DNA from: an uncultured Anaerotruncus sp.
Lineage (GTDB): Bacteria; Bacillota; Clostridia; Oscillospirales; CAG-272
Reading direction: 5' to 3'
DNA: 64,000 bases
Assembly: GCA_902461815.1 (NCBI GenBank)
Contig: CABPZE010000001.1
Location: 321,374-385,373 of the forward strand
The notes below the pieces were generated by a model. That model saw nothing but the letters and a program-made list of their open reading frames with translations. It made no database searches and was not told where the DNA came from. Made by a program: the position numbers and the translations under genes. The first letter of the stretch is position 1, and the number at the start of each line of letters is the position of its first letter. Shown here one piece after another: positions 11,899-54,914 of this stretch.

Positions 11899-12588
11899 TT
11901 ATTTCTTGCGGCGTTTACTGTTTCTCGACTCGGCGCGCTTTCGTTCTCTTTCCTCAATTTCGCGGCGTGTTGTCTCAACGGCGCGCGCCTCTCGTGCATC
12001 GAGCTTCTCAAAAAACCGATCCACAAACTGAATCCCGGTTTTTTTGCGTCCCATGTCTTCGGCGCCCTCCGGACAAATGTTCTTGTAGCAACCGAAAATT
12101 GAGATCGCCGTAACCACAATAAGGATTATAAGCATCAGATAATAAAATCCCGGAGGAATAATCTTTGCAGTTCCCAACGCATATGTGGAAGCCCAAAGCA
12201 CGGTAATTATCATAGCAGTAAGCGCGGTGGATCTTTGCTTATCAAGACCCACATCCGCGGCAGCATTGCTAAGCGCCCAAAGCATCAATAAATGCAGGAG
12301 CATCACAAGCGCCAGCCATACCCATCCTTCAAGAGTAACGGCAAATTGCGGCAAAGCCTCCTCGCCCGCATAATGTTTTATAAAGTAAAACACACCCTCG
12401 GCAACTCCGGTCAGAAGAAAAAGTGCCGCCGCTACCCCTGCGTATACAAATTGTCGGAAATATTCACGGAGCTTATGCATTCCGATCATCATGACAACGC
12501 ATCCGACAATACGTATCGCCCACCCGTAAAGGGTCATTGAAACCACAAAGGTCAGAAGGTAGCCAATAAGCAGAAGACCGAATCCCAT
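11899..12588 (-). CDS. Uncharacterised membrane protein with highly charged C-terminal tail
   Basis: 229 aa with about six hydrophobic segments, then '…REIEERERKRAESRNSKRRKK'. Its ATG overlaps the secA stop (TGATG). Confidence 0.6.
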   Translation of the reverse strand: MGFGLLLIGYLLTFVVSMTLYGWAIRIVGCVVMMIGMHKLREYFRQFVYAGVAAALFLLTGVAEGVFYFIKHYAGEEALPQFAVTLEGWVWLALVMLLHLLMLWALSNAAADVGLDKQRSTALTAMIITVLWASTYALGTAKIIPPGFYYLMLIILIVVTAISIFGCYKNICPEGAEDMGRKKTGIQFVDRFFEKLDAREARAVETTRREIEERERKRAESRNSKRRKK

Positions 12589-15573: not shown

Positions 15574-16065
15574 TTACTGTGTAACAGTCTGCTCTTCGGT
15601 AACAAGCTTGTAAACTATCTTGTCGCCGTCATTTACCTTGCAGGTTACAGAGGTAGCGTTTTCAGGCGTTGCACCGTTTACCGTCCACACAAAATGTGTG
15701 TTTTTGAAGGTAGCGGAGTCGGCGTTGCTGGAAACTGCGGCGCTGTGCTGCTTGATAGTATCTCCACCGAAGGTTATTGAATCAACAGAACCGTCGGAAA
15801 GTGCTACATAGGTCGCCTCTCTTGCATTGATAAGAGCAATAAGAGCGTCGTTGACAGATATACCGGCATCAACTTCAAGCTCGTTATTTCTCAGGAAGAT
15901 CGCCTCAGCACCGTCGCTGTCAGTGTAATACACCTCAACGGAAACGATAATTTTATCTTTTTTGTCATCGGGAGTGTCGTTGCCGTCGCAGGAAATACAC
16001 ATCGCGGAGAAGCCTACAAGCATTACCGCAGCCAAAATCAGTGAAATTAATTTTTTTGTTTTCAT
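15574..16065 (-). CDS. Small secreted/anchored protein, possibly DUF4430-like
   Basis: N-terminal signal/anchor (MKTKKLISLILAAVMLVGFSAMCISC…). The C-terminal '…WTVNGATPENATSVTCKVNDGDKIVYKL' recalls the DUF4430 pattern. AGGAGG RBS present. Confidence 0.5.
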   Translation of the reverse strand: MKTKKLISLILAAVMLVGFSAMCISCDGNDTPDDKKDKIIVSVEVYYTDSDGAEAIFLRNNELEVDAGISVNDALIALINAREATYVALSDGSVDSITFGGDTIKQHSAAVSSNADSATFKNTHFVWTVNGATPENATSVTCKVNDGDKIVYKLVTEEQTVTQ

Positions 16066-18964: not shown

Positions 18965-19417
18965 ATGAAGGATAAGAATATGAAAAACAAGCTCATAGCG
19001 TTTATTACCACAGCGGCGGTGCTTTCTCTTATTGTATCGACCGTCGCCGTTATCAGCTGCTCACGCGCGTTCTCAAAGAAAAACGATATAATACATGCCT
19101 ACCCGGATACCGAACACAGACTTCCCGATTCCCCGATAACTCAATATTGCGATACAGATACACATGACAACGATACAACTCCGGATACCGATAACGACGA
19201 GCCGGCAAAGAGCGCAGGTCTTTCCGAGGACGCGCTTTATCTGTTGATCTACGAAAACGATACACTGTTTGCCTTTGACGAATCAGGTACCGAAATATTT
19301 TCGTCACCGCTGAATGCCGACCGCCTGTCCGCCGCAGAGTCAGAGCTGCTTTACGGCGGAATAATGATTGCGGGCGGTTCGGCGCTGCGCGAAGCGCTTG
19401 AAGACCTGCTCTGCTGA
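18965..19417 (+). CDS. Hypothetical membrane-anchored protein
   Basis: 150-aa ORF with one N-terminal TM helix and an acidic D/T-rich linker. An alternative start at 18980 (MKNKLIAF…) has AAGGA upstream. No family recognised. Confidence 0.45.
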   Translation: MKDKNMKNKLIAFITTAAVLSLIVSTVAVISCSRAFSKKNDIIHAYPDTEHRLPDSPITQYCDTDTHDNDTTPDTDNDEPAKSAGLSEDALYLLIYENDTLFAFDESGTEIFSSPLNADRLSAAESELLYGGIMIAGGSALREALEDLLC

Positions 19418-32946: not shown

Positions 32947-33930
32947 ATGATTAAAAAACCAGAATTTCTGAAAAAAACTGCGTCGCTGATGCTTGCATTG
33001 TCGCTTGCCTTTATTACATCAATCGCAGTATATGCAACAGTAACCTATGACAGTTCCACTGACCCCGTGGTATCACTTTCAGGTCTGGCTCAGTATGTGG
33101 AAAACTATGTGCTGAAGCCGATAGACTCACGCATTTCAGACCTTTCAAGCAGAATAAGCGCACTTGAGCTCGGAGGCACGGGCGGCGGTTCGGGCGGCTT
33201 TGATTCAGAAGCCTATCAGACGCTGATAGCGCGTATTGCCGCGCTGGAGGAAAGCTCAAAGCTCAAGGATGAACAGATATCCAAGCTGAAATCAGATGTC
33301 GAATCGGCAAAAAATGAGCTGAACGGTCGAATCGGAGCTGTCGAACAGAACTACACGGCTCTGTCCAAGCAGATCACGGCGATAAGTGATTCTCTTACCG
33401 GTATCAAGAGCAGTATTGAAACGCTTAAAACCGATAAGACAAATTTGGAAAAGGACTTTGCCGATCTGTCCGATAAATACCTTGCTGTCACCAAATCAAT
33501 GCGCGAGCTTCAGACGTCGCTCGACAAGCTCACAGGTGATGGCGGAGCGATCAGCGAACTAAGGGCGCAGTATAATGCACTCGAAGAATCATGGCAGCTG
33601 CTACAGGCAAAGGCGGGAGTCATGTACCGTCCAGTCTATGTAGAAAACGGAAAAACTATAATGGCTAAAAATGCCGATGAGGGCATACTTGTAATTGTAC
33701 GCACCGGATATGCCGTTATTGTTTCTCCATACAATACATCAGGAACGCTTCAGGGCGTCAACGACCTGACCAGCGGAGAGGAGCTTTACAACGGCGCTGA
33801 CGCACCGCATATGCATAATCTGCTGATCCCGCGCGGCGGAGATGACGGTCGAGGAATACGCATTGAAAGCTATGACGGTGCTTACGTAATGATCGGAGGC
33901 GAATATGTCATTGTCGACAGCAACAGCTAA
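32947..33930 (+). CDS. Secreted coiled-coil protein with beta-rich C-terminal domain (function unknown)
   Basis: Signal/anchor 'ASLMLALSLAFITSIAVYA', a ~170-aa heptad-like region (…LSSRISALE…IAALEESSKLKDEQISKLK…), then a ~100-aa non-repetitive domain. GGAG RBS present. Confidence 0.55.
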   Translation: MIKKPEFLKKTASLMLALSLAFITSIAVYATVTYDSSTDPVVSLSGLAQYVENYVLKPIDSRISDLSSRISALELGGTGGGSGGFDSEAYQTLIARIAALEESSKLKDEQISKLKSDVESAKNELNGRIGAVEQNYTALSKQITAISDSLTGIKSSIETLKTDKTNLEKDFADLSDKYLAVTKSMRELQTSLDKLTGDGGAISELRAQYNALEESWQLLQAKAGVMYRPVYVENGKTIMAKNADEGILVIVRTGYAVIVSPYNTSGTLQGVNDLTSGEELYNGADAPHMHNLLIPRGGDDGRGIRIESYDGAYVMIGGEYVIVDSNS

Positions 33931-35982: not shown

Positions 35983-36951
35983 TTATTTAAGAAAGTCCAT
36001 GAGATCATTCTCGGTTATTCCGCAAAGCTCAGATATGCGGTCTGCCATACGGATCTTATCAAGTCCTGCAAGCGAATGTGAATCCGTACCGAAAGTAAAC
36101 CGACACCCGGCACTCTTAGCAAGCTTCATGACGCGTATCATCGCCTCATCCGCAAAATCATTTTCCGGCATTTTGAAAGCACCGGTATTGACTTCAATGC
36201 CAACGCCCAACTCCTGAGCGCGGGTAAAGCATTCAAGATACTGTTCATCAGACACGGCTTCAATAAGTATCTTCTGCATTTCCTTTGAGAAACCGCAGGG
36301 AGAAAAAGTATGTGCAATAGAAGTAGGGACGGTTTTGGCGAGCTTCTGAAATTCAGGATTGTTCATAAGCCTGAGGAAGCTCTTGTACATAAAATCAACA
36401 TTGTATCCTATTACATCAACATGGCGCTCGCCGATCAGGTTCTCAATATCCCCGTTTGAGAGAGTATTTACAAGCCTCTTCGCCTGATCAATGCTAAGCT
36501 CCGGAAGCGCGGACGCAACCTTAGCTGTCAGTTCTTCGCGCTTGGCTTTTACGTCCTCCATCTCCGGGATAACAAAATTTTTCATATGAATGTGAGTGTG
36601 AGGAACAAGCACATAGTCAAAACGCTTTGCGGTTTCAGCAAGCATACCGAGAGTGTCGCTCATTCCGCAGTATTCGGTTTCAGTTCCTACCATAAGCCTT
36701 ATTCCGGGAATCGACGGCATCGCCGCGCGCGCTCCCTCAAGGCCGAAATTTATCATCTGCTGATGATACCACTTGCTCGCTCCCGGAACCTTCTCATCCC
36801 ACAGGTGATTTGATACACCGAAAACGGTATGCCCCAGCTCTTTTGCACGGCGCGCGAATGCTTCAACCGTTGCTTCCGGATCGTAGCAACAGGATGAGAG
36901 CAATGTGTGATTATGTATGTCGTGAGTTACTTTCACAGATAGACCCTCCAA
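35983..36951 (-). CDS. PHP-domain metal-dependent phosphoesterase-like protein
   Basis: N-terminal 'HDIHNHTLLS' (HxH), and later 'LVPHTHIHM' and 'FGTDSHS' His/Asp clusters in PHP-like spacing. The specific substrate is unknown. Confidence 0.55.
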   Translation of the reverse strand: MEGLSVKVTHDIHNHTLLSSCCYDPEATVEAFARRAKELGHTVFGVSNHLWDEKVPGASKWYHQQMINFGLEGARAAMPSIPGIRLMVGTETEYCGMSDTLGMLAETAKRFDYVLVPHTHIHMKNFVIPEMEDVKAKREELTAKVASALPELSIDQAKRLVNTLSNGDIENLIGERHVDVIGYNVDFMYKSFLRLMNNPEFQKLAKTVPTSIAHTFSPCGFSKEMQKILIEAVSDEQYLECFTRAQELGVGIEVNTGAFKMPENDFADEAMIRVMKLAKSAGCRFTFGTDSHSLAGLDKIRMADRISELCGITENDLMDFLK

Positions 36952-37014
36952 TCATTTTTATGCTCCCATTATAGCAGATTAAGCGGCATTTTGCAACTGT
37001 TTTGCGATTTTTGC

Positions 37015-37043
37015 TTGATATTTTTCTTATGTTGTGATATCAT
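37015..37043 (+). promoter_or_regulatory. Sigma-A-type promoter upstream of deoC
   Basis: TTGATA (37015-37020), a 17-nt spacer, then TATCAT (37038-37043), with TG at 37035-37036. Confidence 0.5.
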
Positions 37044-37076
37044 ATATATGTAAAACAACGAGGAAAGGGTTTAACA

Positions 37077-37739
37077 ATGGATAAATACGAAATTCTGAAA
37101 TACGCAGATCATACTCTTCTTTCTCCAACGTCAACCGAGGAACAGATACGCACGATTTGCAACGACGGCATCAAATATCACACCGCTTCCGTCTGCATTC
37201 CGGCGTCTTATGTAAAATTCGCTCACGATTACACGGAGGGAAAGCTCAACATATGCACCGTGATAGGGTTTCCGCTTGGATATGACACCACAGCATCCAA
37301 ATGCTTTCAAGCCTCCGATGCAATTGAAAACGGCGCAAATGAGATCGACATGGTAATAAATCTCGGTTGGCTCAAGGACGGTTGCTTTGATAAAATTGAA
37401 AATGAGATAAGAAAGATCAAGTCGGTATGCGGGGATCACATTCTCAAGGTTATTATCGAAACCTGTCTGCTGACAGACGAAGAAAAGATCCGTATGTGTT
37501 CCGTTGTAGGAGCGGCAGGAGCTGATTATATTAAAACATCTACCGGATTTTCAACCGGCGGAGCTACGCGCGAGGACATTGCACTGTTTGCCGCCAATGT
37601 TCCGGCAGGTCTTAAGATAAAAGCCGCCGGTGGAATACGCTCCTTCAAGGACGCAGAGGACTTTATCGCGCTTGGGGCTTCAAGGCTTGGCACAAGCTCA
37701 CTTGTCAAAATAATTAAAAAGGAAGAAGAATCCGAATAA
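37077..37739 (+). CDS. deoC: Deoxyribose-phosphate aldolase
   Basis: '[11 protein letters not shown]', '[10 protein letters not shown]' and the Schiff-base Lys context '[10 protein letters not shown]'. 220 aa. Confidence 0.9.
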
Positions 37740-37745
37740 TTAATC

Positions 37746-37787
37746 GGCTGTCGAAAGCTTTAAGCCTTCGACAGCCAGATTTTTTTA
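37746..37787 (+). terminator. Intrinsic terminator after deoC
   Basis: GGCTGTCGAAAGC (37746-37758) pairs with GCCTTCGACAGCC (37764-37776), followed by AGATTTTTTT. Confidence 0.75.
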
Positions 37788-37796
37788 ATTAATATT

Positions 37797-38978
37797 TCAT
37801 ATCACATGAACACCAAGGCGCGGGTCGGCATGCGGAGCGTCAAGTCCGTATCTCAATGCCTTTCGGTATTCAAAAAAGCGCACTGCTTCATCTCCTGCAA
37901 TGGCATAAGTCAGAATATCTTCCGGGTCATCAAGATATTGCGCCGATTCTCTGCACAGGCAGTCAAGTCCGGGTTCAAGCGTGGACGCCGGACGCACCAA
38001 AAGCATAGGATCGTCCCCTACCGTACGCGCGGCAAAGCTCTCGGAAACAGGTGCAGGAGTCCTGCCGTACATACCGCGCAACAGCGAGCTGAATTCCGGC
38101 AACAGAATCTTATAACGGCTTCCTGCTTTAATATTTGTCTCAGCCTGTGCCTTGAGAATATCCGAGATCGGCGGAGCAAGCGGAGGATATCCTGCATCAG
38201 CACGTACATGAGATATTTCAGCGGAAAGAAATTCATTTGTATCCGGTAAAGCAGTGGCAGATTCACATTCGTCGATCATGTCCATGATCCCTTCCAAACC
38301 GTGCGTCTTTTCTGCGCGGATGCAGAGTTCAACTGCATACACGCCAGCTTGGTCTGCCGCTGAGATAACGTCACGCTCGTAAGCTCCGAAGGTTGATATA
38401 ATTATAGGGATCGAGACATTTCTTTTTATCGCGGAGATAAGCTCCGCGGCATCCGACGGCTGCATAAGACCCTCCGGATCAAAAATACAGACCGAGTCTG
38501 CTCCCATCTGCTCAAGCAATGCGGCATATCCGGCAAAAAAACTTATGCTGTGCGCCGGACTTACAGTGTAAACCAGCCCCGCCTGAAGCTCTGCACCGTA
38601 TTTTTTTGCCGCCCCAATAACTGTCTCAAGATTTCTTGAATCGTTAAGTGCATCATACGCGCGGATCATATCAACACCGTGATCCACCAAGCTTGCAATA
38701 AAATATTCAGTAATATCATCGGGATAAATTTTTGACCCCAGTAAGCATTGCCCGCGTAAAACGACCTGTAGCTTTGTTTTATTCAGACATCCGCGTATTA
38801 TACGCAACCGCTCCCAGGGGTCTTCGCCGAACTCCTTGAGACCGATTCCGAAATCCTCAGCGCCCCACAGGTCAAGCGCGTCAAATCCCGCCTCATCAAG
38901 GGCTGCAATATGATCTCTTGAACTGATTTTCGAGAGCGCGCCGAGCTTTGTCGGCGCAAGTCTTCCGATAATACGCAT
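37797..38978 (-). CDS. OadA / transcarboxylase-5S-like carboxyltransferase-fold protein, active-site ligands substituted, no biotinyl domain
   Basis: It retains the backbone signatures 'GEDPWERLR', 'VLRGQCLLG', 'YDALNDSRNLE' and 'VYTVSPAHS'. The positions of DxxLRD, KDMAG and HxHxH read 'IIGRLAP', 'IFDPEG' and 'IIISTFG'. The protein is 393 aa and ends before any AMKM biotin domain. Confidence 0.7.
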   Translation of the reverse strand: MRIIGRLAPTKLGALSKISSRDHIAALDEAGFDALDLWGAEDFGIGLKEFGEDPWERLRIIRGCLNKTKLQVVLRGQCLLGSKIYPDDITEYFIASLVDHGVDMIRAYDALNDSRNLETVIGAAKKYGAELQAGLVYTVSPAHSISFFAGYAALLEQMGADSVCIFDPEGLMQPSDAAELISAIKRNVSIPIIISTFGAYERDVISAADQAGVYAVELCIRAEKTHGLEGIMDMIDECESATALPDTNEFLSAEISHVRADAGYPPLAPPISDILKAQAETNIKAGSRYKILLPEFSSLLRGMYGRTPAPVSESFAARTVGDDPMLLVRPASTLEPGLDCLCRESAQYLDDPEDILTYAIAGDEAVRFFEYRKALRYGLDAPHADPRLGVHVI

Positions 38979-39139
38979 TACAGTTTGTCAGCGCGGTGAA
39001 CGCTGTCGTTTTCTCCGGTTTCAGCGTTCTTTTTATTACTGTTTGCCTCGCTTGACGCACTGTCGTTATCGGGAACGATTTCTTCTACCTCGGCAATATA
39101 TTCGGTATTGTTGATTTTTACCTTGAACAATCTTTTCAT
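38978..39139 (-). CDS. 53-aa ORF resembling only the N-terminal segment of decarboxylase biotin-carrier subunits (MKRLFKVKINNTEYIAEVEEIV…)
   Basis: It fills the gap between the OadG-like and OadA-like genes. Its TAA overlaps the downstream ATG (TAATG). The N-terminus matches the 'MKKFxVTVNGxxYxVEVEE' pattern, recalled from memory. The RBS is weak or distant (AAAGG ~15 nt upstream). Confidence 0.4.
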   Translation of the reverse strand: MKRLFKVKINNTEYIAEVEEIVPDNDSASSEANSNKKNAETGENDSVHRADKL

Positions 39140-39192
39140 ATTATCATATCATACCTTTCATTATTATCGAGCCAAATCGGTATCCATAATTA

Positions 39193-39546
39193 TCATGGGC
39201 GTATCCACGGCTGTGCTCCGCTTGCGCGTCTGAACGCAACCACACGGAATGATGGTGGAACACTCTTTTTCTCCTCTGCCTCCGCAGCAAGGTACGCGGC
39301 GACCGCCGCCGTTATCGCCGCTGCAAGTTGAGCTTGTGATGCAGCCTCGCAGGCTTCACACTCTGCTCTTTCCGCCATTTCAGCGCGAAGAAGCGCCTCG
39401 CGCTTTTTCTTTTTGTTTTTACCTACCAATGCAACAGTCAAGGAAAGAGCAAGGAGCAGAAAAACAAATAAACAAACAGCTATTATGCAATAGTCGTTGA
39501 ATGTCTTCCCTTCCGCCGCCGTAGCAAGAATTATAAAGCCTCTCAT
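39193..39546 (-). CDS. OadG-family (sodium-pump decarboxylase gamma/delta) membrane anchor protein
   Basis: A single TM helix, then '…LAAAITAAVAAYLAAEAEE…' and C-terminal 'FRVVAFRR…PW'. The ATG at 39546 overlaps the upstream stop (ATGA). The track ORF is extended to 39672 inside the upstream gene. Confidence 0.7.
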   Translation of the reverse strand: MRGFIILATAAEGKTFNDYCIIAVCLFVFLLLALSLTVALVGKNKKKKREALLRAEMAERAECEACEAASQAQLAAAITAAVAAYLAAEAEEKKSVPPSFRVVAFRRASGAQPWIRP

Positions 39547-41036
39547 CTTGAGCGTCTGCCCTCCCTTCGGGGTGTGGGAAGCCCTCGCGACTTGAAAGAA
39601 AGCATTCTGACCGCCGATACAATTCTGGTCCTCAGCTCTGACGGCTCTATTATATCGTCGATCTGACCGCAAAGAGCCGCGTCATTCGGAGAAGCGAGTT
39701 TTTCCCGCCATTCACGTTCAAGCTGTTCTCTGGTCACCGTAACCTCGTTGCTGCAAATTCGGTCGTTCCAGACAAAAGCAACTGATGCCTCAGGAGACAT
39801 TGCACTGATACAGGAATCAACAAGAGCAAAAGCCACGTCTCCGCCAACGGACTTGGACGCCATCAAGGTAAACCCAATTCCATAGGCATTTCCGGTCACC
39901 GCGCTTATTTTTGCATTTTCAGACAGCGTAAGCTCGGAATAAAGATCGGCTATTGCCGAGGCGTATTCCGCCGAATCTGATTCCTCGGAACATATCCCGC
40001 CGCAGTTCGCAAGAGCAATTAGCGGAAGTCCGAATTCATCGCAAAATCTTACAAGCCTTTCAGCCTTGCGGCAAGCCGAAGCTGTCATCATTCCGGAACG
40101 CACCGACGGCTGATTAGCCATGATACCGCAGCACACTCCGCCGACAAAGGCAAGCCCCGCAACAAGCTCAGGAGCAAGCTCTGACCTGATCTCAAGAAAT
40201 ATTTCTTCGTCAGCCAATGATGCTGCAAGCTTTTTGGCATCATACCTGTCCGGAAGGAGCAGTTCCGGCGGAGTCATGCGCTCAAGCACCGGAGTATCGG
40301 TGAGCCTTGCACCTTCGTTACAGTTGGAGGGAATAAGAGCAAGCAGCTCACGGGTGCGGATATACAGCTCATCCTCGCTGTCCGAGATAATATCCGCAAT
40401 CGCAGAACCGTCGGCTGTAGTCTCGCCGCTGATAAACTGCGGAGCAACATAAAATTCGCTCTGATTTCTGACGCATAATACAAAATCAAACGCAGAGGCA
40501 AAGGCAGCCATTCCGCCGCCGCATACTCCGGGGATAAGCGCCACAAGCGGAACAATGCCTTTCGCCGAAAAAATGCTTTTCATTATCCTGCCATATGCCG
40601 CAAGTACTTTTGCGCCCTCGTATACCGATGCTCCGCAGGAATCAAAAATTCCGACAACAGGAGCGCCGTTTCGGATCGCAAGATTGATAAGCGACGTAAT
40701 TTTTCCGGCAGAAACGCTGTCAAAAGCGCCTTTCATACGTGAGCTGTCCTGAACAAAGGCATAAACCAGTCTCCCGTCTATTGCCCCGTAGCCTGTAATC
40801 ACACCTTCAAACGCATTTGACGGATCATCTCCCGCATCCTGCCTTACAATATAAGCCCCGGTTTCGGCAAACGTACCCATATCAAAAAGAGCAAGAATGC
40901 GCGCACGCGCGTTATATCCTCCGTTTGCTTCTTTGATTGAGCTTATATCTATGTTTTTAAGCATTTCGGTCAGTTTGCTCGCCGTAATCGCTCCTAAAAC
41001 ACTTTTTTTTCGTTCGCTCTGACTGCTGTTTTCCAT
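39543..41036 (-). CDS. Acyl-CoA carboxyltransferase-family protein (MmdA/GcdA/PccB-like alpha subunit), divergent
   Basis: Two crotonase-like carboxyltransferase halves: 'GVITGYGAIDGRLVYAFVQD…', 'PGVCGGGMAAF' and 'IMANQPSVRSGMM…KAERLVRFCDEFGLPLI'. GGAG RBS present. Confidence 0.75.
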   Translation of the reverse strand: MENSSQSERKKSVLGAITASKLTEMLKNIDISSIKEANGGYNARARILALFDMGTFAETGAYIVRQDAGDDPSNAFEGVITGYGAIDGRLVYAFVQDSSRMKGAFDSVSAGKITSLINLAIRNGAPVVGIFDSCGASVYEGAKVLAAYGRIMKSIFSAKGIVPLVALIPGVCGGGMAAFASAFDFVLCVRNQSEFYVAPQFISGETTADGSAIADIISDSEDELYIRTRELLALIPSNCNEGARLTDTPVLERMTPPELLLPDRYDAKKLAASLADEEIFLEIRSELAPELVAGLAFVGGVCCGIMANQPSVRSGMMTASACRKAERLVRFCDEFGLPLIALANCGGICSEESDSAEYASAIADLYSELTLSENAKISAVTGNAYGIGFTLMASKSVGGDVAFALVDSCISAMSPEASVAFVWNDRICSNEVTVTREQLEREWREKLASPNDAALCGQIDDIIEPSELRTRIVSAVRMLSFKSRGLPTPRREGRRSR

Positions 41037-41072
41037 GTGCAGCTCCAGTATTCCAAATTTTTTATCAACAAA

Positions 41073-42242
41073 TTATCTGAGTGTCTTTATAAATGCTTCT
41101 ATACGTTCAAGCGCCGCGTCAATATGATTTACAGAATATGCATAGGAAATACGTGCAAAGCCCTCGCCAGATCTGCCGAAAGCAGTACCCGGAACAATAG
41201 CGCAATGATAATCATAAAGCAGACGATTGCAGAATTCTTCGCTTGAAAGTCCAAATTTTCCTATCTCCGGATAGATGTAAAACGCCCCTTCCGGCTCAAA
41301 TGACTCAATACCTATATCTGAAAGTCCGCGGTAAATGTAGCGACGGCGGAAATTGTACTGTTCAGCCATATATTCTATGTCCGAATCACCGTTTTTCATT
41401 GCCTCGACAGCTGCGAGCTGACTTGTTGTGGGCGCGCACATAATAGCGTACTGATGCAGCTTCAGTATCTGCTCCGAAATCGGAGCGGGGGCGCAGACAT
41501 AACCAAGCCTCCAACCCGTCATGGCATATGCCTTTGAAAAACCGGAGGCAAGCACTGTACGTTCGCGCATTCCCGGCAGCGATACAATAGAAGTGTGACG
41601 GAAGCCAAATGTCAGCTCAGCGTAAATTTCATCGGACAAAACCACAATATTGGTCTGCCGCAGCACCTGCGCGATCTTTTCAAGGTCGTCGCGTGTCATT
41701 ACTGCACCGGTGGGATTGTTGGGATATGCCAGAACAAGCAATTTTGTTTTCGGCGTAATCGCCGCCGCCAGCTTTTCCGGAGTCAGCTTGAACTTGTCAC
41801 GCGCCGATGTATCAATTATTACTGGTATGCCGCCTGCCATTTTTACAAGCGGTTCGTAACACACAAAACACGGTTCCGGTATTATGACCTCGTCACCCGG
41901 AACGACAAGCGAACGAATAGCCATATCTATCGCTTCACTGCCGCCGACGGTGACTGTTATTTCCTTTTTAGGATCATAGGTCAAGTCAAAACGGCGCGAA
42001 AGATATGACGCGATCTCATTTCTAAGCTCAAGCGTACCCGCGTTTGAAGTATAATAAGTTTTACCCCTCTCAAGACTTTCAATTCCTGCTTCGCGAATAT
42101 GCCATGGCGTAATGAAATCAGGCTGTCCTACAGTCAGTGAGACCACGTTGTCCATATCCTCAAGTAAATCAAAAAACTTACGTATTCCTGATTTCTTGAG
42201 CGATGTTACAGTGGGAGAGAGCACCTTGCCATAGTCGAACAT
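41073..42242 (-). CDS. Class I/II PLP-dependent aminotransferase
   Basis: 389 aa with 'YPNNPTG' and the PLP-Lys context 'SGFSKAYAMTGWRLGY'. The start overlaps the regulator's stop (TGATG). Confidence 0.85.
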   Translation of the reverse strand: MFDYGKVLSPTVTSLKKSGIRKFFDLLEDMDNVVSLTVGQPDFITPWHIREAGIESLERGKTYYTSNAGTLELRNEIASYLSRRFDLTYDPKKEITVTVGGSEAIDMAIRSLVVPGDEVIIPEPCFVCYEPLVKMAGGIPVIIDTSARDKFKLTPEKLAAAITPKTKLLVLAYPNNPTGAVMTRDDLEKIAQVLRQTNIVVLSDEIYAELTFGFRHTSIVSLPGMRERTVLASGFSKAYAMTGWRLGYVCAPAPISEQILKLHQYAIMCAPTTSQLAAVEAMKNGDSDIEYMAEQYNFRRRYIYRGLSDIGIESFEPEGAFYIYPEIGKFGLSSEEFCNRLLYDYHCAIVPGTAFGRSGEGFARISYAYSVNHIDAALERIEAFIKTLR

Positions 42243-42718
42243 CAGTTGCAGTTTCCTCTCTCGTCGATTTCGGCAGAACCGTATACCACGCCCTTGTCCT
42301 TATATTTCTTAAGTACAAAATGAGTTGCGGTAGAGGTGACATATTCAATGGGCGCCAGCTTCTGGGCTACAAAGAACGCCACTTCCTTCATGGTCTTGCC
42401 CTCAATAATAAGCGCAAGATCAAAGCCTCCCGACATAAGGTAAACACTCTTTACCTCAGGATAGCTGTATATCTTCTCAGCAGCCTTATCAAAGCCGAGA
42501 TCACGCTGCGGGGTGATTTTTACCTCAATGAATGCGGTAACATATTCACGGTCTGTTTTGTCCCAATCCACAAGCGCCTGGTATCCGAGTATTACACCGT
42601 CTTCCTCGTACTTTTTTATAGTCCTTTTTATGTCTCCGGTTTCTTTATTAAGCATTACAGCCAGCTGCTCAGGCGTCAGCTTGGCATCATTTTCGAGCAT
42701 TGCTAAGATCTTATCCAT
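42242..42718 (-). CDS. Lrp/AsnC-family transcriptional regulator
   Basis: An N-terminal HTH ('LENDAKLTPEQLAVMLNKETGDIKRTIKKYEEDGVI') plus a C-terminal RAM/AsnC_trans_reg-like domain. GAGGGA RBS present. Confidence 0.85.
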   Translation of the reverse strand: MDKILAMLENDAKLTPEQLAVMLNKETGDIKRTIKKYEEDGVILGYQALVDWDKTDREYVTAFIEVKITPQRDLGFDKAAEKIYSYPEVKSVYLMSGGFDLALIIEGKTMKEVAFFVAQKLAPIEYVTSTATHFVLKKYKDKGVVYGSAEIDERGNCN

Positions 42719-42741
42719 TTTTATCCCTCACTATCGAAAAT

Positions 42742-44349
42742 TTATTTTTTCATTTCTACTTTCTTTTTTATTGAATCATACGACAATCCGTATTTTTCGG
42801 CAATATCCCGGGCGTAGCTCTTACCGTCGGGTTTGGCACGGGTGATTTTGAAGGAGCGCTTCCCTTCTTCAATGCCGGCAACAAGCGTATCAATTTTTAC
42901 GCCACCGTTTTTGGCGGTTCTGGCATTGATATCGTCTATCATTGCCGCCAACTCGTGCAGATGTGTTGAGAAAAGCACCCGGCATCCAATCAGTGCAAAG
43001 CCACCCAAAACCTCTGCCGCAATATATGACGCTTCAAACGATCCGGTAGAGGACAATGATTCGTCAAGCAAAACCAAAGACTCATCAGTCACGGAGCTTA
43101 TTATTGCGTCAAGCCGGGCGCACTCCTCGCCGAGTCTGCCTTTATCTATTGTATCGTCAGCACCGGTAGGAAAGTGCGTATAGATACCGTCAACAGGAGA
43201 CATGACCGCTGACTGCGCCGGAACAAACATTCCAAGCTGAAGCATTGCCTGCGATATTCCAAGTGCGCAGGTAATAACCGATTTTCCGCCGCGGTTAGGA
43301 CCTGACAGCACATAGATCGTTGCATTCTCGTCAAATACAAGATCGTTAGGTACAACTTCACCTTCTATTTTCAGCGCAACAGCCGGATTGTAAAGCCCGT
43401 ATGCACAGTAAGTCTTGTCAGCGGCAGGAGCAAGCTCCGGGAAACAAAGCGGACAGTGCTTTTCCTTAAGCCGTTTCAGCATACGGGTGCCTTTCACCAA
43501 AAACTCTATTTCGGGGATAAGATTCAGCAGAAAATCGGTATTTTCAAGCACGTACTGCTGAACTATCTTCTTCCACGAGCGAAGCGACGAGCTGTAAACA
43601 TCGTTGATAGCGGAATTAAAGGCTATCGACAAGGCTGTCTTCTGGTTGTCTGTCTGATTCTTGTTAAAGGGCACAAGCTTGGCAATGCATGTGTATTCGT
43701 CGTCCTTGAAATTAAGGCGAAGGATCTTTTCTATTACATCTCCAGAGCGGAACTGCTCCGGGTTGATAGACAGCACTCCGGCATCCTTTGGACGAAGCTG
43801 AGCGTCCAGATTCACTCCGATGGTTACGCTTTTGATTTCCCTTACGCGCTTGGTCAGCTCGCACAGCTTTTCGTTAAGCTCACTGTAATAGTCGCTTTCG
43901 GCAAGCTCGTTTATCCGGTCGCAAAGCGTGCGGAAGGCACGGCTTTTCAGGTTGTCGCTTACTGCGTTTAGACCGTCGTTAAGCGTATCCACACTGGAAA
44001 TATAAAGCTCTATCTCGGTAATGCTCGCAAGATAATCGTTTGTGTCACCGCTGTCAGACTCAAGGCGACGCAGCTCAAGCACGTCGTTCAGAATAGGCAT
44101 CACGGAATTAAGCGTGTCAATAAGTCCTGGGTTCTCAAGCAGATCGGCAAAGGTTTCATTGCGATATGCAATAACCTCAGGGTCAGAGGTAAAAAACTCC
44201 GGCAACGACCCGTTTTTAAGTTGAAGAATATCCCCAAGCCCCAGCTCGTCCACAACATACTGGCTAATATCAGGTCTGTCCTCGGCTCGAAGATGTCTCT
44301 CCTGCGACTCCTCATCGGGATATATCAAAGAAAAATTCTGAAGATCCAT
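42742..44349 (-). CDS. MutS-related ATPase (domain V only, no mismatch-binding domain)
   Basis: Walker A 'SGPNRGGKSV', 'LVLLDESLSSTGSFEA' and 'FSTHLHELA'. The N-terminal ~300 aa are helical and unrelated to MutS domain I. Confidence 0.75.
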   Translation of the reverse strand: MDLQNFSLIYPDEESQERHLRAEDRPDISQYVVDELGLGDILQLKNGSLPEFFTSDPEVIAYRNETFADLLENPGLIDTLNSVMPILNDVLELRRLESDSGDTNDYLASITEIELYISSVDTLNDGLNAVSDNLKSRAFRTLCDRINELAESDYYSELNEKLCELTKRVREIKSVTIGVNLDAQLRPKDAGVLSINPEQFRSGDVIEKILRLNFKDDEYTCIAKLVPFNKNQTDNQKTALSIAFNSAINDVYSSSLRSWKKIVQQYVLENTDFLLNLIPEIEFLVKGTRMLKRLKEKHCPLCFPELAPAADKTYCAYGLYNPAVALKIEGEVVPNDLVFDENATIYVLSGPNRGGKSVITCALGISQAMLQLGMFVPAQSAVMSPVDGIYTHFPTGADDTIDKGRLGEECARLDAIISSVTDESLVLLDESLSSTGSFEASYIAAEVLGGFALIGCRVLFSTHLHELAAMIDDINARTAKNGGVKIDTLVAGIEEGKRSFKITRAKPDGKSYARDIAEKYGLSYDSIKKKVEMKK

Positions 44350-44354
44350 ATATA

Positions 44355-45425
44355 TTATTCCTTATCATTTTTATGTCCGTCGGTGCCGTCAGCGTTCGGT
44401 GCATCCTCGACGCGAGCCACATCCCGCCCGAGCGGATTTTTTGACATTGCATTTTCAACATCGCTGTCAACAACGTGGGTGTATATCTGAGTGGTGTTAA
44501 GCTGCTCATGCCCCAATATTTCCTTAAGGACACGGACATCCACTCCGCCCTCACGGTACATAAGCGTCGCCGCAGTATGCCGCAGCTTATGTACCGAATA
44601 GTGCTTTGACCCCAGACCTGCGCGCTCAAGATATTTGTTGACAGTCCACTCGACCGACTTGGGGCTTATACGCCTGCCCTCACGGCTGAGAAAAAGCGCA
44701 TTTGAATCAGCAGGAGTTTTGGGCTTGACCGTGCCGCGAGTCCGTTCATCGAGGTAATCGCCAAGCGCGGCTCTGCAAGCCTCATTGAGGTAAATAATAC
44801 GTTCCTTATTTCCCTTTCCGACTATACGAACAGTACGCAGATAACGGTCAATATCATCAAAATCAATTCCGCAAAGCTCGGAAAGACGTAATCCGCAATT
44901 CAGAAAAAGAGTTATCATGGCAAAGTCGCGTCGGCGGAATGCTGAGGTCGTATCCGTTCTCACCGTTTCAAGCAGAAGGCGCGATTCCTCAAGCGTCAGA
45001 AATTTCGGCAATGACTTCCGCTTGTTCGGCGCGTCGATTGCGGCAGTCGGGTCATTTTCAAGCAACTGCCGTTTTGAGACGAGATACTTGAACAGACTCT
45101 TGATAGCAGTCAGTTTGCGCGCACGCGCTGCACTTTTGTTTCCGCGTTCGCGGTCGGTGTAAAATAAAAAATCGTAAATATCAGTGCTTTGGATGCCGCG
45201 CAGGAACTCAACATCAACACCGCTGATGTCGATAGAGGTAAATTCCTCACTGTGCGGATCTGGAACGTTGCCCTGCCCCTTGGCAATAAGAAAGCGAAAG
45301 AATGTGCGCAGGTCAAGCATATATTCATTAACCGTCCGAGGTGAGCGCCCCTGAATAACCAGCTTGTATCCGGCAAATTCCCGCAATATCTGAGAATATT
45401 CCTCCGGATTATATTGTGTCGCCAT
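44355..45425 (-). CDS. Tyrosine site-specific recombinase (XerC/XerD family) with ~35-aa acidic C-terminal tail
   Basis: An N-terminal SAM-like domain, with 'GLRLSEL', 'HKLRHTAATLMY', 'LGHEQLNTTQIYTHV' (catalytic Tyr) providing the R…HxxR…H…Y set. Confidence 0.85.
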   Translation of the reverse strand: MATQYNPEEYSQILREFAGYKLVIQGRSPRTVNEYMLDLRTFFRFLIAKGQGNVPDPHSEEFTSIDISGVDVEFLRGIQSTDIYDFLFYTDRERGNKSAARARKLTAIKSLFKYLVSKRQLLENDPTAAIDAPNKRKSLPKFLTLEESRLLLETVRTDTTSAFRRRDFAMITLFLNCGLRLSELCGIDFDDIDRYLRTVRIVGKGNKERIIYLNEACRAALGDYLDERTRGTVKPKTPADSNALFLSREGRRISPKSVEWTVNKYLERAGLGSKHYSVHKLRHTAATLMYREGGVDVRVLKEILGHEQLNTTQIYTHVVDSDVENAMSKNPLGRDVARVEDAPNADGTDGHKNDKE

Positions 45426-45541
45426 ACACCATGCGTCCCTTTCGACTGAAAAATATAAACTTAATAATAATAATTTTAATCATTTTACACAGTGCATCTG
45501 GTGCTTTTATTGTATAAAGTGTAAACTTTCCGATTTGGATA

Positions 45542-45570
45542 TTGAAAACAAACGTGTTTTTATATATAAT
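45542..45570 (+). promoter_or_regulatory. Sigma-A-type promoter for the 45630 membrane-protein gene
   Basis: TTGAAA (45542-45547), a 17-nt spacer, then TATAAT (45565-45570). Confidence 0.6.
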
Positions 45571-45577
45571 TAAAGAA

Positions 45578-45597
45578 ATTGAAGACCCGTCTTCAAT
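45578..45597. promoter_or_regulatory. Perfect 9-bp inverted repeat (ATTGAAGAC-cc-GTCTTCAAT) at the predicted transcription start
   Basis: Read directly from the sequence. It begins 8 nt after the -10 hexamer, so it could be an operator or a 5'-UTR hairpin. Confidence 0.5.
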
Positions 45598-45629
45598 ACG
45601 TCAATCCGTCAATCTACGAGGTTTCGCTC

Positions 45630-46232
45630 ATGAGTTTTCTGAAAAAATATTCTTACAACATCGTCAAGCTGCTTATCAACCAAATTGCAATTTCAATTTT
45701 CGGCAACGTGCTTGCCATCGCGTGCGGAATGGCGCAGTATGAGCAACTCAAGCTGATAACAAGTATATTTGCGATCCTGTTTTATATGTTTCTTAACTAT
45801 TCCGCAGTATGGGATCTTGGATTCCGTGAGCTGCCCGGTATTGAGGCGGGGCGCAATCCGCGCCGTCCTCTCGCAGGTCTTTATATGGCGCTTGTCGCGG
45901 CTATACCGAATTTCCTGCTCGCCATTCTCGTCATGCTGGGTAATCTGCTATGCGATATAAAGTTCTTCTCCACCGTCGGCGCAGTAGCGGGAATGATAGC
46001 TATCTGGGTTGAAGGAATGTACACAGGTATTCTTTCCTTCATTAAGATCTCCGGAATGCCCGCCAATTCGTATTGGATCTCCTATTTTATAATAATCATC
46101 CCCGGTCTGATTGCAGGCTGGCTCGGCTACTACTTCGGCATACGCGGATTCCACCTGACCCGAATACTTATTGCCGACACGCCCGAAGATGTGGAGAAAA
46201 AAAGAGAGGAAAAGAACAGTCACCGCAACTGA
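45630..46232 (+). CDS. Uncharacterised integral membrane protein (~5-6 TM)
   Basis: ATG at 45630 (MSFLKKYSYN…) with GAGG 10 nt upstream; the track ORF starts at 45579. The body is hydrophobic and the tail charged (…EDVEKKREEKNSHRN). Confidence 0.6.
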   Translation: MSFLKKYSYNIVKLLINQIAISIFGNVLAIACGMAQYEQLKLITSIFAILFYMFLNYSAVWDLGFRELPGIEAGRNPRRPLAGLYMALVAAIPNFLLAILVMLGNLLCDIKFFSTVGAVAGMIAIWVEGMYTGILSFIKISGMPANSYWISYFIIIIPGLIAGWLGYYFGIRGFHLTRILIADTPEDVEKKREEKNSHRN

Positions 46233-46246
46233 TAAGACAACCAAAG

Positions 46247-46867
46247 ATGTACGACAATATTATTTATGATTTTGACGGCACTGTTGCCGATTCATATCCG
46301 TATTTCACTCAAGCGATGCAGTTAACACTGCGGCATTACGGCATGGACGATTCCTACGATTCGGTGCTTACTCAGCTGAAAATATCCGTAAGACACGCTT
46401 TTCGTTACTACGCATTTGAGAACAAAGCCGAAGCGAAACTTATGATGTACAACTTTTATCACGAGCTTGCGCGTGATAATGAAACACCGGTTGCGGGTGC
46501 TGCCGAAGCTCTGAGATTTGCATCAAGCGTCGGAAAAAGGAACTATCTTTACACTCACTCCGATGAATTTCCCAAGCTCCTGCTTGAAAAATGGGGGCTG
46601 CTGAATGAATTCACATTCATAATTGACAGCACATTCGGATTTCCGAGCAAGCCCGCTCCTGACGCGCTCAATTACCTTTGCGAACGTTTTTCGCTTGACA
46701 AGGATCGCTCCTTAATGGTAGGCGACCGTGATATTGACGTGCTTTCCGGAATAAATGCGGGTATGCACGGATGTCTGTTCGACGAAGGTCATTTTTATGA
46801 TGATTTCAAGTGCGAGCATATGATCAGACATCTCTGCGAGCTCCCGTCGATCATCGGTGAAAATTGA
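46247..46867 (+). CDS. HAD-family hydrolase (phosphoglycolate-phosphatase-like)
   Basis: Motif I 'IIYDFDGTVADS' directly after the internal ATG at 46247, and motif IV 'MVGDRDIDVLSG'. The track ORF (46073) overlaps the preceding gene. Confidence 0.72.
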   Translation: MYDNIIYDFDGTVADSYPYFTQAMQLTLRHYGMDDSYDSVLTQLKISVRHAFRYYAFENKAEAKLMMYNFYHELARDNETPVAGAAEALRFASSVGKRNYLYTHSDEFPKLLLEKWGLLNEFTFIIDSTFGFPSKPAPDALNYLCERFSLDKDRSLMVGDRDIDVLSGINAGMHGCLFDEGHFYDDFKCEHMIRHLCELPSIIGEN

Positions 46868-53201: not shown

Positions 53202-54827
53202 TTATTTTGATACTCCCATCCAACAGCCCTCGGCTCCGATAGCGTTATCGGGCGGAGTAAGAATACCCTTTTCAACGAGGGATTCGACCACACCGTCGCA
53301 CAGCGGCAAACCTGCAATATTGTTGAAAAAACGCCATTCGCCAAGCAGATAATCCGGAACGCTCCTGCGGATCAGCTCTGCAACCTTCCCGGCAACAGCC
53401 TGCGCTTCGGCATCGAAATATCCGTTTGAAAGCTCATCGCTGATATCAAACAACCTGTCCTCGTCCTTTATATCGTTCACAAGTATCTTCGTCCAAAGCA
53501 TATTTTCCTCACGGTACAGGTAACCGCACTCGATCGCTTTTGCGGCATGCTCCTTTTCAACCTCCGAGAGAGTCCCCACGTCAAGGCCGTTTATTGAACG
53601 GAGAGCAAGCTGAATTTTTGAATCGCTGGAAATATTATGCCCGCATCCGAAATGCTTTTCAATGCGTTTAATATAGATGTTGTCAAGACGAATTTCCGAG
53701 AATCCGCACACATTCCGGGCAACTACTCCGTCCCAACCTCCGCCGTAGTGTTTTCCGTTATCAACATAACCGAATACACTGAACGGACGTTTTACCTTTT
53801 CGACTCCTGCAAAGTAGTTATCCGACAGTATTCTTTCAACTTTTTCCCTAAACACATGCGACATGTTATATACCTGCTGCCAAAGGACAAGATTAAGATC
53901 AATTTTCTTGTTCAGATACGGAAATGCAAGATAATCGCCCTTCCTCTTATCAATGAAATCGGAAATAACATTGCATATCATTGGCAGCTGCTCATTGTAT
54001 ATGCCATGAGCTTTTTCAACCTTATCCTTGTCGAGAAGTATGAAATTGATTGCATATTTACCGTTATCAAGCCGCCGCAAAAGCCCGTATTTCCCGTTCT
54101 CCCCCCTTGTCTGAATATCCAGCTCTTCTTCGACATAAACGGTAGGAACATTCAGTGCTTCTGCAATTTCAAGTGCACTCATGGGCTTTTTATGGCACAG
54201 ATGGACGATCTGCTTTGAAATCTGCCTTGTGCATTCATTTCTTGGGTCGCCCCAACCGGGATTTCCTGTTCCCCAGATCACAAAATTAATTTTATCAAGG
54301 GCGACCGGTCTTTTATTTGTATCTGACATTTTTTCCACCTCGCTTTTTACTTTTTTTCTTGCCGAAAACAGTCTCTGACGAACAGCTCCCTCGCTTGTTT
54401 TCTGACACTCGGCAATTTTTGCTGTTGAAAGTCCGTCAATGTAGAACATTATCATAACCTCGCGGTATGCTCTTGTAAGGAAGGCAATACAACGGTATAC
54501 TGCGCAAATCAGCTCATGTCCTTCATCCTCGTCATTCTCGTCTGAAATGAACGGGAATATTTCTTCAGGATCACCCTCATAAAATATTCCGTCGCGGCGT
54601 TTACGCTTGTCCGAGAAGTCGGCGTACACGTTACGCGCCACTCTCCAGATAAAAGGATAAGGATTTTCAATATCGCCTTCGGCATTGGCAGATTTTACAA
54701 TTGCAAAAATTATGTCAGAACACAATTCCTGCGCCTCATAGCTGTCTGCGGTTCTGGCATAACAGAAGCCGTACAGCTTTTCAAGCAGTTCATCATTGAA
54801 ATAGTTCAGCAGTTCCTGTTTTTTCAT
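53202..54827 (-). CDS. ECF-like sigma-70 family factor fused to a ~375-aa C-terminal domain of unknown function
   Basis: Region 2 ('FIWRVARNVYADF') and region 4 HTH ('REVMIMFYIDGLSTAKIAECQKTSEGAVRQRLFSARKKV') fall within the first ~175 aa. The remainder is unrecognised. ATG at 54827 with AAGGAA upstream; the track uses GTG at 54860. Confidence 0.7.
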   Translation of the reverse strand: MKKQELLNYFNDELLEKLYGFCYARTADSYEAQELCSDIIFAIVKSANAEGDIENPYPFIWRVARNVYADFSDKRKRRDGIFYEGDPEEIFPFISDENDEDEGHELICAVYRCIAFLTRAYREVMIMFYIDGLSTAKIAECQKTSEGAVRQRLFSARKKVKSEVEKMSDTNKRPVALDKINFVIWGTGNPGWGDPRNECTRQISKQIVHLCHKKPMSALEIAEALNVPTVYVEEELDIQTRGENGKYGLLRRLDNGKYAINFILLDKDKVEKAHGIYNEQLPMICNVISDFIDKRKGDYLAFPYLNKKIDLNLVLWQQVYNMSHVFREKVERILSDNYFAGVEKVKRPFSVFGYVDNGKHYGGGWDGVVARNVCGFSEIRLDNIYIKRIEKHFGCGHNISSDSKIQLALRSINGLDVGTLSEVEKEHAAKAIECGYLYREENMLWTKILVNDIKDEDRLFDISDELSNGYFDAEAQAVAGKVAELIRRSVPDYLLGEWRFFNNIAGLPLCDGVVESLVEKGILTPPDNAIGAEGCWMGVSK

Positions 54828-54914
54828 GTTTTTCCTTAAGCGATTGATCAATGCTTTCACCTAAATAGTCGGCATAATTATGAATTTGTCAGGCGGTATG
54901 CAGAAAAAAATCAA

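Follow-up and report, generated by a model that had tools for sequence, protein, structure and literature searches.

What remains of a biotin-dependent carboxyltransferase complex once its biotinylated arm, its membrane pump, and one of its active sites have gone, and why is the remainder kept? The textbook cases of swinging-arm catalysis include the biotin-dependent decarboxylase and transcarboxylase complexes. An armless and pumpless version with one dead site, selected and repeated, would mean either carboxyltransferase chemistry without protein-bound biotin or an overlooked structural or regulatory role. The question is raised by a four-gene cluster on the minus strand of a 64,000-nucleotide stretch of DNA (hereafter the window) from an uncultured Anaerotruncus sp. 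(GenBank assembly GCA_902461815.1, contig CABPZE010000001.1, positions 321,374 to 385,373). The cluster encodes a carboxyltransferase (CT), an OadG-like membrane anchor, an open reading frame (ORF) of only 53 aa, and a 393-aa OadA-like protein that we call A'. An initial annotation, made from the letters alone, had described overlapping stop and start codons between these genes, and direct reading of the sequence bore this out: the CT stop and the OadG start share ATGA (39546-39543), and the 53-aa ORF stop and the A' start share TAATG (38980-38976). As set out below, it is well supported that the cluster descends by reduction from a five-gene operon encoding CT, OadG, a biotin carboxyl carrier protein (BCCP), OadB, and OadA, in that order.

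Descent from a five-gene operon

Locus L005 (GCA_964579135.1) carries an operon composed of CT (492 aa), OAD_gamma (118 aa), Biotin_lipoyl (121 aa, with the motif EAMKME), OAD_beta (398 aa), and OadA (468 aa), and the last of these proteins, P0032, is the closest intact homologue of A'. The genes downstream of this operon are those found downstream of the cluster in the window, namely deoC, spoIID, a 310-aa ORF, a topoIV/gyrA-like gene, sua5, and RF1. Because the intact operon adjoins the same downstream neighbors, the window cluster is a reduced derivative and not an operon type that never had a carrier or a pump. The two forms share gene order, 48-50% identity in the CT, the C-terminal motif of OadG, the N-terminal motif of BCCP, and the C-terminal tail of OadA, whereas only the five-gene form has OadB, a full BCCP, and an OadA with the Asp/Lys/His-x-His ligands, RDxHQ, and PGGM(L)SN. 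The five-gene form was found in at least 17 further loci and is common in uncultured Clostridia; to our knowledge, it is experimentally uncharacterized (e.g., L005, L057, L013, and L070). Operons of the form BCCP-OadB-OadA, without a CT, are also common in related Clostridia.

The initial annotation had noted that the biotin carrier domain and the beta pump are missing from the cluster, and this held throughout the window. Neither OadB nor a biotinyl domain was found in a six-frame search of the 64 kb, and tblastn with OadB of L005 returned nothing better than E=0.5 from the window. Between the 53-aa ORF and A', whose stop and start codons overlap, there is no gene for a beta subunit (PF03977, OAD_beta). 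It is well supported that, in the window lineage, OadB was deleted, the carrier was cut to a segment of about 21 residues plus a tail, and OadA lost its metal site and its substrate and catalytic motifs while keeping its fold.

Relatives whose A' proteins are only 40-62% identical to that of the window carry these four genes in an unchanged order, so the arrangement is indeed conserved, a point on which the initial annotation had called for a check. We refer to the window and its nearest relatives as group 1, in which identity to A' is 88% in L008, 62% in L009, 49% in L010/L011, 47% in L001-3, and 40-43% in L094. The group-1 loci recovered with flanks share a common order: a Xer-type integrase, a MutS-V protein, an AsnC-type regulator, and an aminotransferase, then the cluster, then deoC, PHP, and spoIID. 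Group 2 (L007/L012) has the same four-gene form with other flanks. One apparent close relative with intact OadA and BCCP, P0005 in L004 (93% identity over the C-terminal 148 aa), was discarded as a chimeric metagenome scaffold. In L004 (ENA ERZ28564250 scaffold_60212), positions 3389-4288 form a 900-nt window-like stretch that is 95.6% identical to window positions 37317-38207; the junctions fall inside the conserved segments VRADAGYPP and AIENGANEI, and the flanking sequence is unrelated.

An OadA-like protein without its metal site

The assignment of A' to the OadA/5S/pyruvate carboxylase CT fold, made in the initial annotation, was upheld by profile and structure comparisons. A' matches PF02436 (E=1e-12), reaches 21.9 bits against PF00682 (cutoff 29), and matches the oadA, 5S, and PycB models at 1e-62 to 1e-89, all far under the model cutoffs. 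An AlphaFold2 (AF2) model (pLDDT 77.8) shows eight barrel strands and a C-terminal helical domain, that is, the TIM barrel and C-terminal domain of the family, and Foldseek aligned it with 5ks8, 2nx9, and 1rqh at TMq 0.77-0.84 (TM about 0.8). A truncated TIM barrel had been expected, since about 70 residues are missing, but the model retains every one of the eight strands; what is deleted lies after strand 8 and includes PGGM(L)SN. The segment PGGM(L)(S/T)N is conserved in all intact homologues aligned and presumably carries the catalytic Thr/Ser.

The family metal site consists of an Asp, a carbamylated Lys, and a His-x-His pair. These positions were located by HMMER alignments of A' to the solved structures of OadA (2nx9), PycB (5ks8), and 5S (1rqb) and by MAFFT alignment with intact homologues. 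KDMAG aligns with IFDPEG of A', which places F166 at the position of the Lys, and the HxH strand aligns with IIISTFG, in which the first His is replaced by S195 and the second is deleted. No Asp, Glu, or His was found in residues 1-21, where the LRDxHQS site is expected. A sequence RDH at residues 21-23 was rejected as a candidate for LRDxHQS, because it lacks conservation and, in the model, belongs to helix 1 and not to the end of strand 1. The reported loss of all four ligands therefore stands, and a proper alignment did not restore any of them. The same loss was seen in nine representatives sharing no more than 80% identity. The A' family comprises proteins of 350-410 aa in which only PF02436 is detected, all without the ligands; one member, P0003, is labeled 'hypothetical protein' at NCBI.

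The initial annotation was also right that A' stops before any biotinyl domain, but this is not an oddity: the intact orthologues of A' (465-468 aa) have a separate BCCP gene and also lack the domain, so its absence is ancestral and ordinary. We then defined family-conserved columns as those at least 90% conserved in proteins from the loci with intact OadA. A' keeps 84 of 251 such OadA columns (33%, group 1), and the corresponding value for group 2 is 31%. Residues conserved only in the degenerate family are just L79, G150, L327, and I355, and nothing resembling a site was found among them. Because almost no residues are conserved specifically in the degenerate family, a new active site in A' is unlikely. 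The C-terminal tail LDAPHADxxxGVHVI is conserved, with D380, G389, and H391 invariant; in the monomer model it is of low confidence or disordered.

The carrier remnant and the anchor

The 53-aa ORF, which the initial annotation had listed as a stub, is indeed present and can now be explained. It matches only residues 1-44 of the BCCP model PRK06549 (NCBIfam, E=1e-3), and tblastn with residues 1-47 of the L005 BCCP finds it with E=0.004. The ORF consists of a conserved N-terminal anchor/association segment, MKRLFKVKINNTEYIAEVEEI, followed by a variable charged tail, and it has lost the biotinyl domain; for comparison, the L005 BCCP reads MRRFTVKVNGTSYDVEIEEV at its N-terminus. A segment between the CT and biotinyl domains of the full-length OadA P0111, YAVSVDGKVYDVIV, shows the same pattern. 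There was no PF00364 match in the ORF, and no biotinyl domain, which would bear a lysine of the (A/V)MKM type, in the window. Judging from these similarities, the 53-aa ORF is the retained N-terminal anchor segment of a biotin carrier. An ORF of 41-63 aa occupies this position in every degenerate locus, and across lineages its 21-codon core has proportions of nonsynonymous differences (pN) of 0.09-0.32 against proportions of synonymous differences (pS) of 0.29-1.05. In glutaconyl-CoA decarboxylase (GCD), the N-terminal ~30 aa of GcdC have been described as the carrier anchor and proposed to form a linker with the C-terminus of GcdD (PMC7145394).

The anchor protein scores 26.8 bits against PF04277 (OAD_gamma, cutoff 27) and 20.3 bits against TIGR01195 (cutoff 36.05, E=6e-4), and its place in the operon is that of the OAD_gamma gene in L005. 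It consists of one N-terminal transmembrane (TM) helix, a KKKK stop-transfer sequence, an amphipathic helix (AAITAAVAAYL), and a C-terminal FRVVAFRR..PW, a motif that is common to intact operons. In a PT-like structure, the C-terminal amphipathic helix of gamma binds the association domain of alpha (PMC7274780). The TM helix is retained in the window and in most relatives. In L094 (6488-6781), the OadG-like protein (97 aa) has no TM helix and retains the C-terminal helix and FRVVAFKR. The membrane anchor thus seems to be dispensable after loss of the pump.

The carboxyltransferase

The first gene had been described as a divergent acyl-CoA carboxyltransferase of 497 aa, and both parts of this description were confirmed. 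The CT matches PF01039 with E=5e-65, and its best NCBIfam match, TIGR01117 (mmdA), gives 259 bits, so far under the cutoff of 998.8 that the protein must be called divergent. The best matches among solved structures are the propionyl-CoA carboxylase (PCC) beta structures 3n6r and 1x0u and the 12S structure 1on3 (E 1e-55 to 5e-61). Two crotonase-like domains with oxyanion-hole glycine motifs are present, GVCGGG standing under GPCAGG and AYGIGF under AYGGAY. On PF01039 and these motifs, the CT would qualify as the substrate carboxyltransferase of a Na+ decarboxylase. A blocked biotin pocket, suggested by AYG-I/M/V-GF in place of AYGGAY, was considered and rejected: intact relatives carry Ala, Pro, Ser, or Thr there, and as they also vary at this position, the change of Gly to Ile, Met, or Val in the second motif is not diagnostic.

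Across the 21 CTs whose loci have an intact OadA, 60 columns are conserved; group 1 keeps 57 of them (95%), and group 2 keeps 90%. No other subunit of the cluster has a catalytic core that appears intact. Its nearest characterized relatives, PCC beta, MmdA, and 12S, suggest methylmalonyl- or malonyl-CoA as a possible substrate.

Selection on the cluster

All four genes of the cluster are under purifying selection; simple decay into pseudogenes does not describe them. For the window against L008, the ratios of nonsynonymous to synonymous substitution rates (dN/dS) are 0.08 for the CT, 0.20 for the OadG-like gene, 0.30 for the carrier remnant, and 0.20 for A', at a dS of about 0.29, and those of the flanking genes are 0.008-0.15. 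For A' the ratio is 0.11 against L009 and 0.11-0.25 overall; for the CT it is 0.08-0.11 overall. In close pairs of intact operons, which serve as the baseline, OadA is the slowest-evolving subunit (0.024-0.043), and the CT ranges from 0.07 to 0.19. A' is therefore relaxed 5- to 8-fold relative to intact OadA and still clearly constrained, and the constraint on the CT is unchanged, which argues that the CT probably still works. Decay would be seen as dN/dS near 1 with frameshifts or stop codons; the observed values are 0.08-0.30, and every lineage retains intact ORFs. Even where dS is saturated (>2), the four ORFs and their overlapping junctions are maintained. The initial annotation had stated that its reading would be refuted if relatives carried the cluster with an intact carrier and beta subunit and this copy were a simple decaying pseudogene cluster. 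Such a relative does exist, L005, but the second half does not apply, as the ORFs are intact and dN/dS is low.

Repeated origins

To place the relatives, CT trees were built by neighbor-joining with 100 bootstraps. Group 2 is sister to the intact operon of L057 (bootstrap 100), this pair joins intact L005 (100), and group 1 falls outside. Consistently, the CT of L007 is 63% identical to that of L057 versus 49% to that of the window, and the carrier remnant and the OadG tail of group 2 resemble those of L057 more than those of group 1. A profile search over 1.84 billion representatives yielded further ligand-less lineages (P0121-P0123 and P0238) together with full-length intermediates. L091 and L095 have CT-OadG-BCCP-OadA without OadB, and the motifs of their OadA read LRG, QDTAG, and STH. 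The BCCP of L095 (8001-8357; also L091) reads EAMEIQ, in which the biotinyl Lys is replaced by Glu, and this change is kept over three 90% clusters down to 78% identity. The CT of L095 lies inside a clade of intact operons (bootstrap 100). L092 encodes a CT, a BCCP (6059-6421) with VMDIE (Lys to Asp), and an OadA with LRN and QLH, and its CT groups with that of the transcarboxylase-type L069 (bootstrap 100). BCCP reads EAMKME in 21 of 21 loci with intact OadA, and in the loci with ligand-less OadA the beta subunit is absent and the carrier is truncated or lysine-less, with L093 as the one exception. Taking these results together, the CT phylogeny indicates that biotin-less derivatives probably arose at least four times independently, two of them keeping a full BCCP with a mutated biotinyl Lys (Lys to Glu and Lys to Asp).

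The OadA tree puts all degenerate proteins, including that of L092, together (bootstrap 100). A single origin was nevertheless rejected: L092 is pulled in although its CT belongs to the transcarboxylase-type clade, and we therefore read the grouping as long-branch attraction. The identity of A' to the intact proteins of L057 and L005 is as high as that between groups 1 and 2.

Two side observations concern the carriers and the exception. Full-length carriers with a replaced biotinyl lysine occur in P0269-P0271, P0275, P0297, L095/L091, and L092 (EAMEIQ, VMDIE, EALNMQ, and EAMNMQ), and close relatives of such carriers read EAMKMQ. In L093 (244-2294), on a contig of only 2.3 kb, a ligand-less OadA-like protein (405 aa; LLG, LDKCG, and HAAD) precedes OAD_gamma, a BCCP whose EAMKME motif is intact, and the beginning of OadB; a dead OadA here sits in a pump operon that is otherwise live.

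Possible function of the cluster

The initial annotation regarded the cluster as a repurposed or non-catalytic assembly. Family-wide loss of the ligands, conserved gene order, and purifying selection favor this view, with the amendment that the assembly is a reduced derivative of an intact operon such as that of L005. Because biotin, the pump, and the OadA site are missing, the ancestral reactions (oxaloacetate decarboxylation, acyl-CoA decarboxylation coupled to a pump, or transcarboxylation) cannot run as before. Our preferred and tentative reading, to which we assign a probability of roughly 0.45, is a non-pumping acyl-CoA decarboxylase in which the CT would be the sole catalyst and the other three subunits would form a scaffold. 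A CT hexamer would decarboxylate a carboxy-acyl-CoA, by similarity to PccB/MmdA/12S most likely methylmalonyl- or malonyl-CoA, without energy conservation, and the enolate would be protonated directly or the CO2 handed to free biotin. Taking no part in the chemistry, the C-terminal helix and strand of OadG, the carrier remnant, and A' would be kept as an assembly or tethering module. In it, the carrier remnant and the OadG tail could come together as a PT-like mini-domain, with the conserved tail at the C-terminus of A' serving as a docking strand; no sodium would be pumped. The OadG helix AAITAAVAAYL with the FRVVAFRR strand, the association hairpin, and A' with its tail do look like parts for assembling a particle.

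We favor this decarboxylase reading because the constraint on the CT is unchanged and because there is a precedent: in a statement of PMC2996986 that cites Braune 1999, GcdA alone decarboxylates glutaconyl-CoA with free biotin. Several points weigh against it. The catalytic role of the CT is predicted from conservation, and the nearly full set of conserved CT residues, which presumably covers the biotin pocket, agrees at least as well with biotin still being used in some form as with cofactor-free decarboxylation. The 12S hexamer of transcarboxylase is stable on its own, so that a need of the CT for A' is hard to explain, and the scaffold argument is weak there. The death of OadA is not always tied to the loss of biotin, because L093 has its ligand-less OadA beside an intact BCCP and the start of OadB. 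Finally, all the trees are neighbor-joining trees, and the OadA tree unites all degenerate proteins.

The retention of 95% of the family-conserved CT positions is what would be expected if the biotin half-reaction persisted with partners supplied in trans. The cluster would then be a biotin-dependent decarboxylase or transcarboxylase that uses a carrier, and possibly an OadB or a second CT, encoded elsewhere, with the TM helix of OadG docking on the pump. The conservation of this helix in the window and most relatives agrees with such an arrangement, as does the combination of a dead OadA with a live BCCP and beta in L093, and the frequent CT-less operons of related Clostridia mean that partners exist in the clade. 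However, independent lineages keep their own BCCP with the biotinyl Lys replaced (by Glu, or by Asp in L092), which would be odd if a carrier were needed, and the OadG-like protein of L094 has no TM helix. In addition, no beta subunit or biotinyl domain lies within the 64 kb, and the retained carrier remnant and a foreign carrier would be rivals for the anchor site. We consider this explanation unlikely.

Somewhat less likely still is a wholly non-catalytic particle, in which the CT would also be inactive and the complex would have a new role, e.g., acyl-CoA sensing or sequestration or enzyme regulation, perhaps tied to the AsnC regulator and the aminotransferase encoded upstream. Three of the four parts are demonstrably non-catalytic, A' is under purifying selection without catalytic residues, and the AsnC-aminotransferase neighborhood is tight and conserved in every group-1 locus with an upstream flank. 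However, dN/dS of the CT (0.08-0.11) matches the 0.07-0.19 seen for CTs of intact operons, the oxyanion-hole motifs are kept, and the AsnC-aminotransferase pair is absent beside group 2, L095, and L092. Simple decay after inactivation of the operon, to which the intact orthologous operon beside the same downstream neighbors in L005, the faster evolution of A' relative to dS, and the lineage-dependent extent of the deletion scar might point, is highly improbable, since the four ORFs are intact in every lineage examined, dN/dS is far under 1 for each gene, the overlapping start and stop codons are preserved, and the same end state was reached independently.

A broader proposal, which we regard as rather doubtful, is that a class of biotin-free complexes derived from biotin enzymes has evolved recurrently in several lineages of uncultured gut Clostridia, which would have given up biotin chemistry through loss of the lysine, truncation of the carrier, deletion of the pump, and inactivation of the OadA site, with the whole particle kept under selection. 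If true, it would point to an undescribed function of a carboxyltransferase complex, either catalytic and cofactor-independent or non-catalytic, and the organisms might live largely without protein-bound biotin. Annotation pipelines label these proteins 'oxaloacetate decarboxylase alpha', 'carboxyl transferase', or 'hypothetical', and on such labels metabolic models of gut metagenome-assembled genomes would wrongly infer a sodium pump, oxaloacetate decarboxylase activity, or transcarboxylase activity.

Genes around the cluster

The features of the cluster and its immediate surroundings are collected in the table. The stem-loop behind A' serves A' and deoC convergently and is likely to be the end of the transcription unit. 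At the other end, the gap between the aminotransferase and the CT is 36 nt, and no terminator-like site was found in it (41037-41072). The AsnC and aminotransferase genes lie upstream in all group-1 loci for which this flank was recovered (L001, L008, L010, and L094). They may be co-transcribed with the cluster, and we regard them as candidate neighbors and not as established members.

Table. Features of the four-gene cluster and its immediate surroundings (positions in the window)
Feature	Positions	Strand	Evidence or location
CT, acyl-CoA carboxyltransferase of the PccB/MmdA/12S type, 497 aa	39543-41036	minus	PF01039
OadG/GcdD-like anchor, 117 aa counted from ATG	39193-39546	minus	PF04277 score near cutoff, operon position
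53-aa ORF, biotin carrier (BCCP) remnant (by similarity)	38978-39139	minus	PRK06549 and tblastn with L005 BCCP
A', OadA/5S/PycB-fold pseudoenzyme, 393 aa	37797-38978	minus	PF02436, alignments, AF2 model
Strong stem-loop of 15 pairs with T-rich tail	37745-37777	minus	directly 3' of A'
Class I/II aminotransferase	41073-42242	minus	directly upstream of CT
AsnC-type regulator	42242-42718	minus	upstream of aminotransferase

Beyond these genes, positions 42742-45425 encode a 535-aa protein with MutS domain V only and then a Xer-type integrase, and both stand upstream of the AsnC block in all group-1 loci with that flank (L001, L008, L010, and L094). Comparison of window positions 35983-46867 with L008, the closest relative, gave synonymous divergences of adjacent genes from 0.04 (PHP) to 0.33 (AsnC), and this unevenness suggests a recombination mosaic along the region. 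On the other side, a 327-aa coiled-coil-like protein (32947-33930) with only faint Pfam matches is encoded immediately upstream of spoIID, and the two genes overlap at the spoIID start; they stay together in L001, L010, L094, and, more distantly, L005. Farther away, a 552-aa protein (53202-54860) matches only sigma-70 region 4 (residues 121-172), its remaining ~380 residues being without a match. Four ORFs without a Pfam match at E<=1e-5, at 10365-11822 (485 aa), 11899-12588 (229 aa), 15574-16065 (163 aa), and 18965-19417 (150 aa), sit among the housekeeping genes uvrD/pcrA, secA, PBP1, and dnaE.

Comparison with known systems

A non-exhaustive literature search found nothing relevant on a described pseudo-OadA or on a biotin-less carboxyltransferase complex, and no high-resolution structures of the holo-complexes of oxaloacetate decarboxylase (OAD), GCD, or methylmalonyl-CoA decarboxylase (MMD) were found in the literature. 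The cluster resembles OAD of Vibrio, Klebsiella, and Salmonella (OadA-OadB-OadG) in the OadA fold of A' (TM about 0.77 to 2nx9) and in its gamma-like single-TM anchor with a C-terminal helix. It resembles the OadA-OadD-OadB-OadH system of Enterococcus faecalis, in which the biotinyl domain is not on OadA (PMC6193673), in having an alpha subunit without a biotinyl domain and a separate gene for the carrier. In contrast to OAD, the cluster has no pump, biotin, or metal site, so that neither OAD half-reaction is possible, and it has an additional acyl-CoA CT. Like MmdABCDE and GcdABCD, it combines a PccB/MmdA-type CT with a delta/gamma-type anchor and with a carrier anchored through its N-terminal ~30 residues (PMC7145394). 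It differs from them in its distant CT (259 bits against the 998.8-bit mmdA cutoff), in the absence of MmdB/GcdB and of a biotinyl domain, and in its extra, dead OadA-like subunit.

The set of a CT, a 5S-like protein, and a small peptide corresponding to a carrier N-terminus also recalls the 12S-5S-1.3S transcarboxylase of Propionibacterium, and the matches to 1on3 and 1rqb are strong. The window cluster, however, has a dead 5S-like subunit, a 1.3S-like peptide without biotin, and a membrane anchor, and thus does not place a biotinylated 1.3S between an active 12S and an active 5S. Two further precedents come from PMC2996986. Stand-alone GcdA with free biotin, as mentioned there, is a precedent for decarboxylation by a CT without a pump or a bound carrier, and gcdA-oadA of Geobacter bemidjiensis pairs a CT with an OadA without a beta subunit. 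Unlike the window cluster, in which OadA is inactive and there is no biotinyl domain, the Geobacter OadA has biotinyl domains. Among these systems, the cluster offers a natural dissection of the assembly pieces, namely the carrier N-terminal segment, the gamma C-terminal tail, and the OadA C-terminal tail. It is a reduced version of a known operon type rather than a system of a new kind. The comparative pattern stands out clearly and is surprising for the field; the proposed function is tentative.

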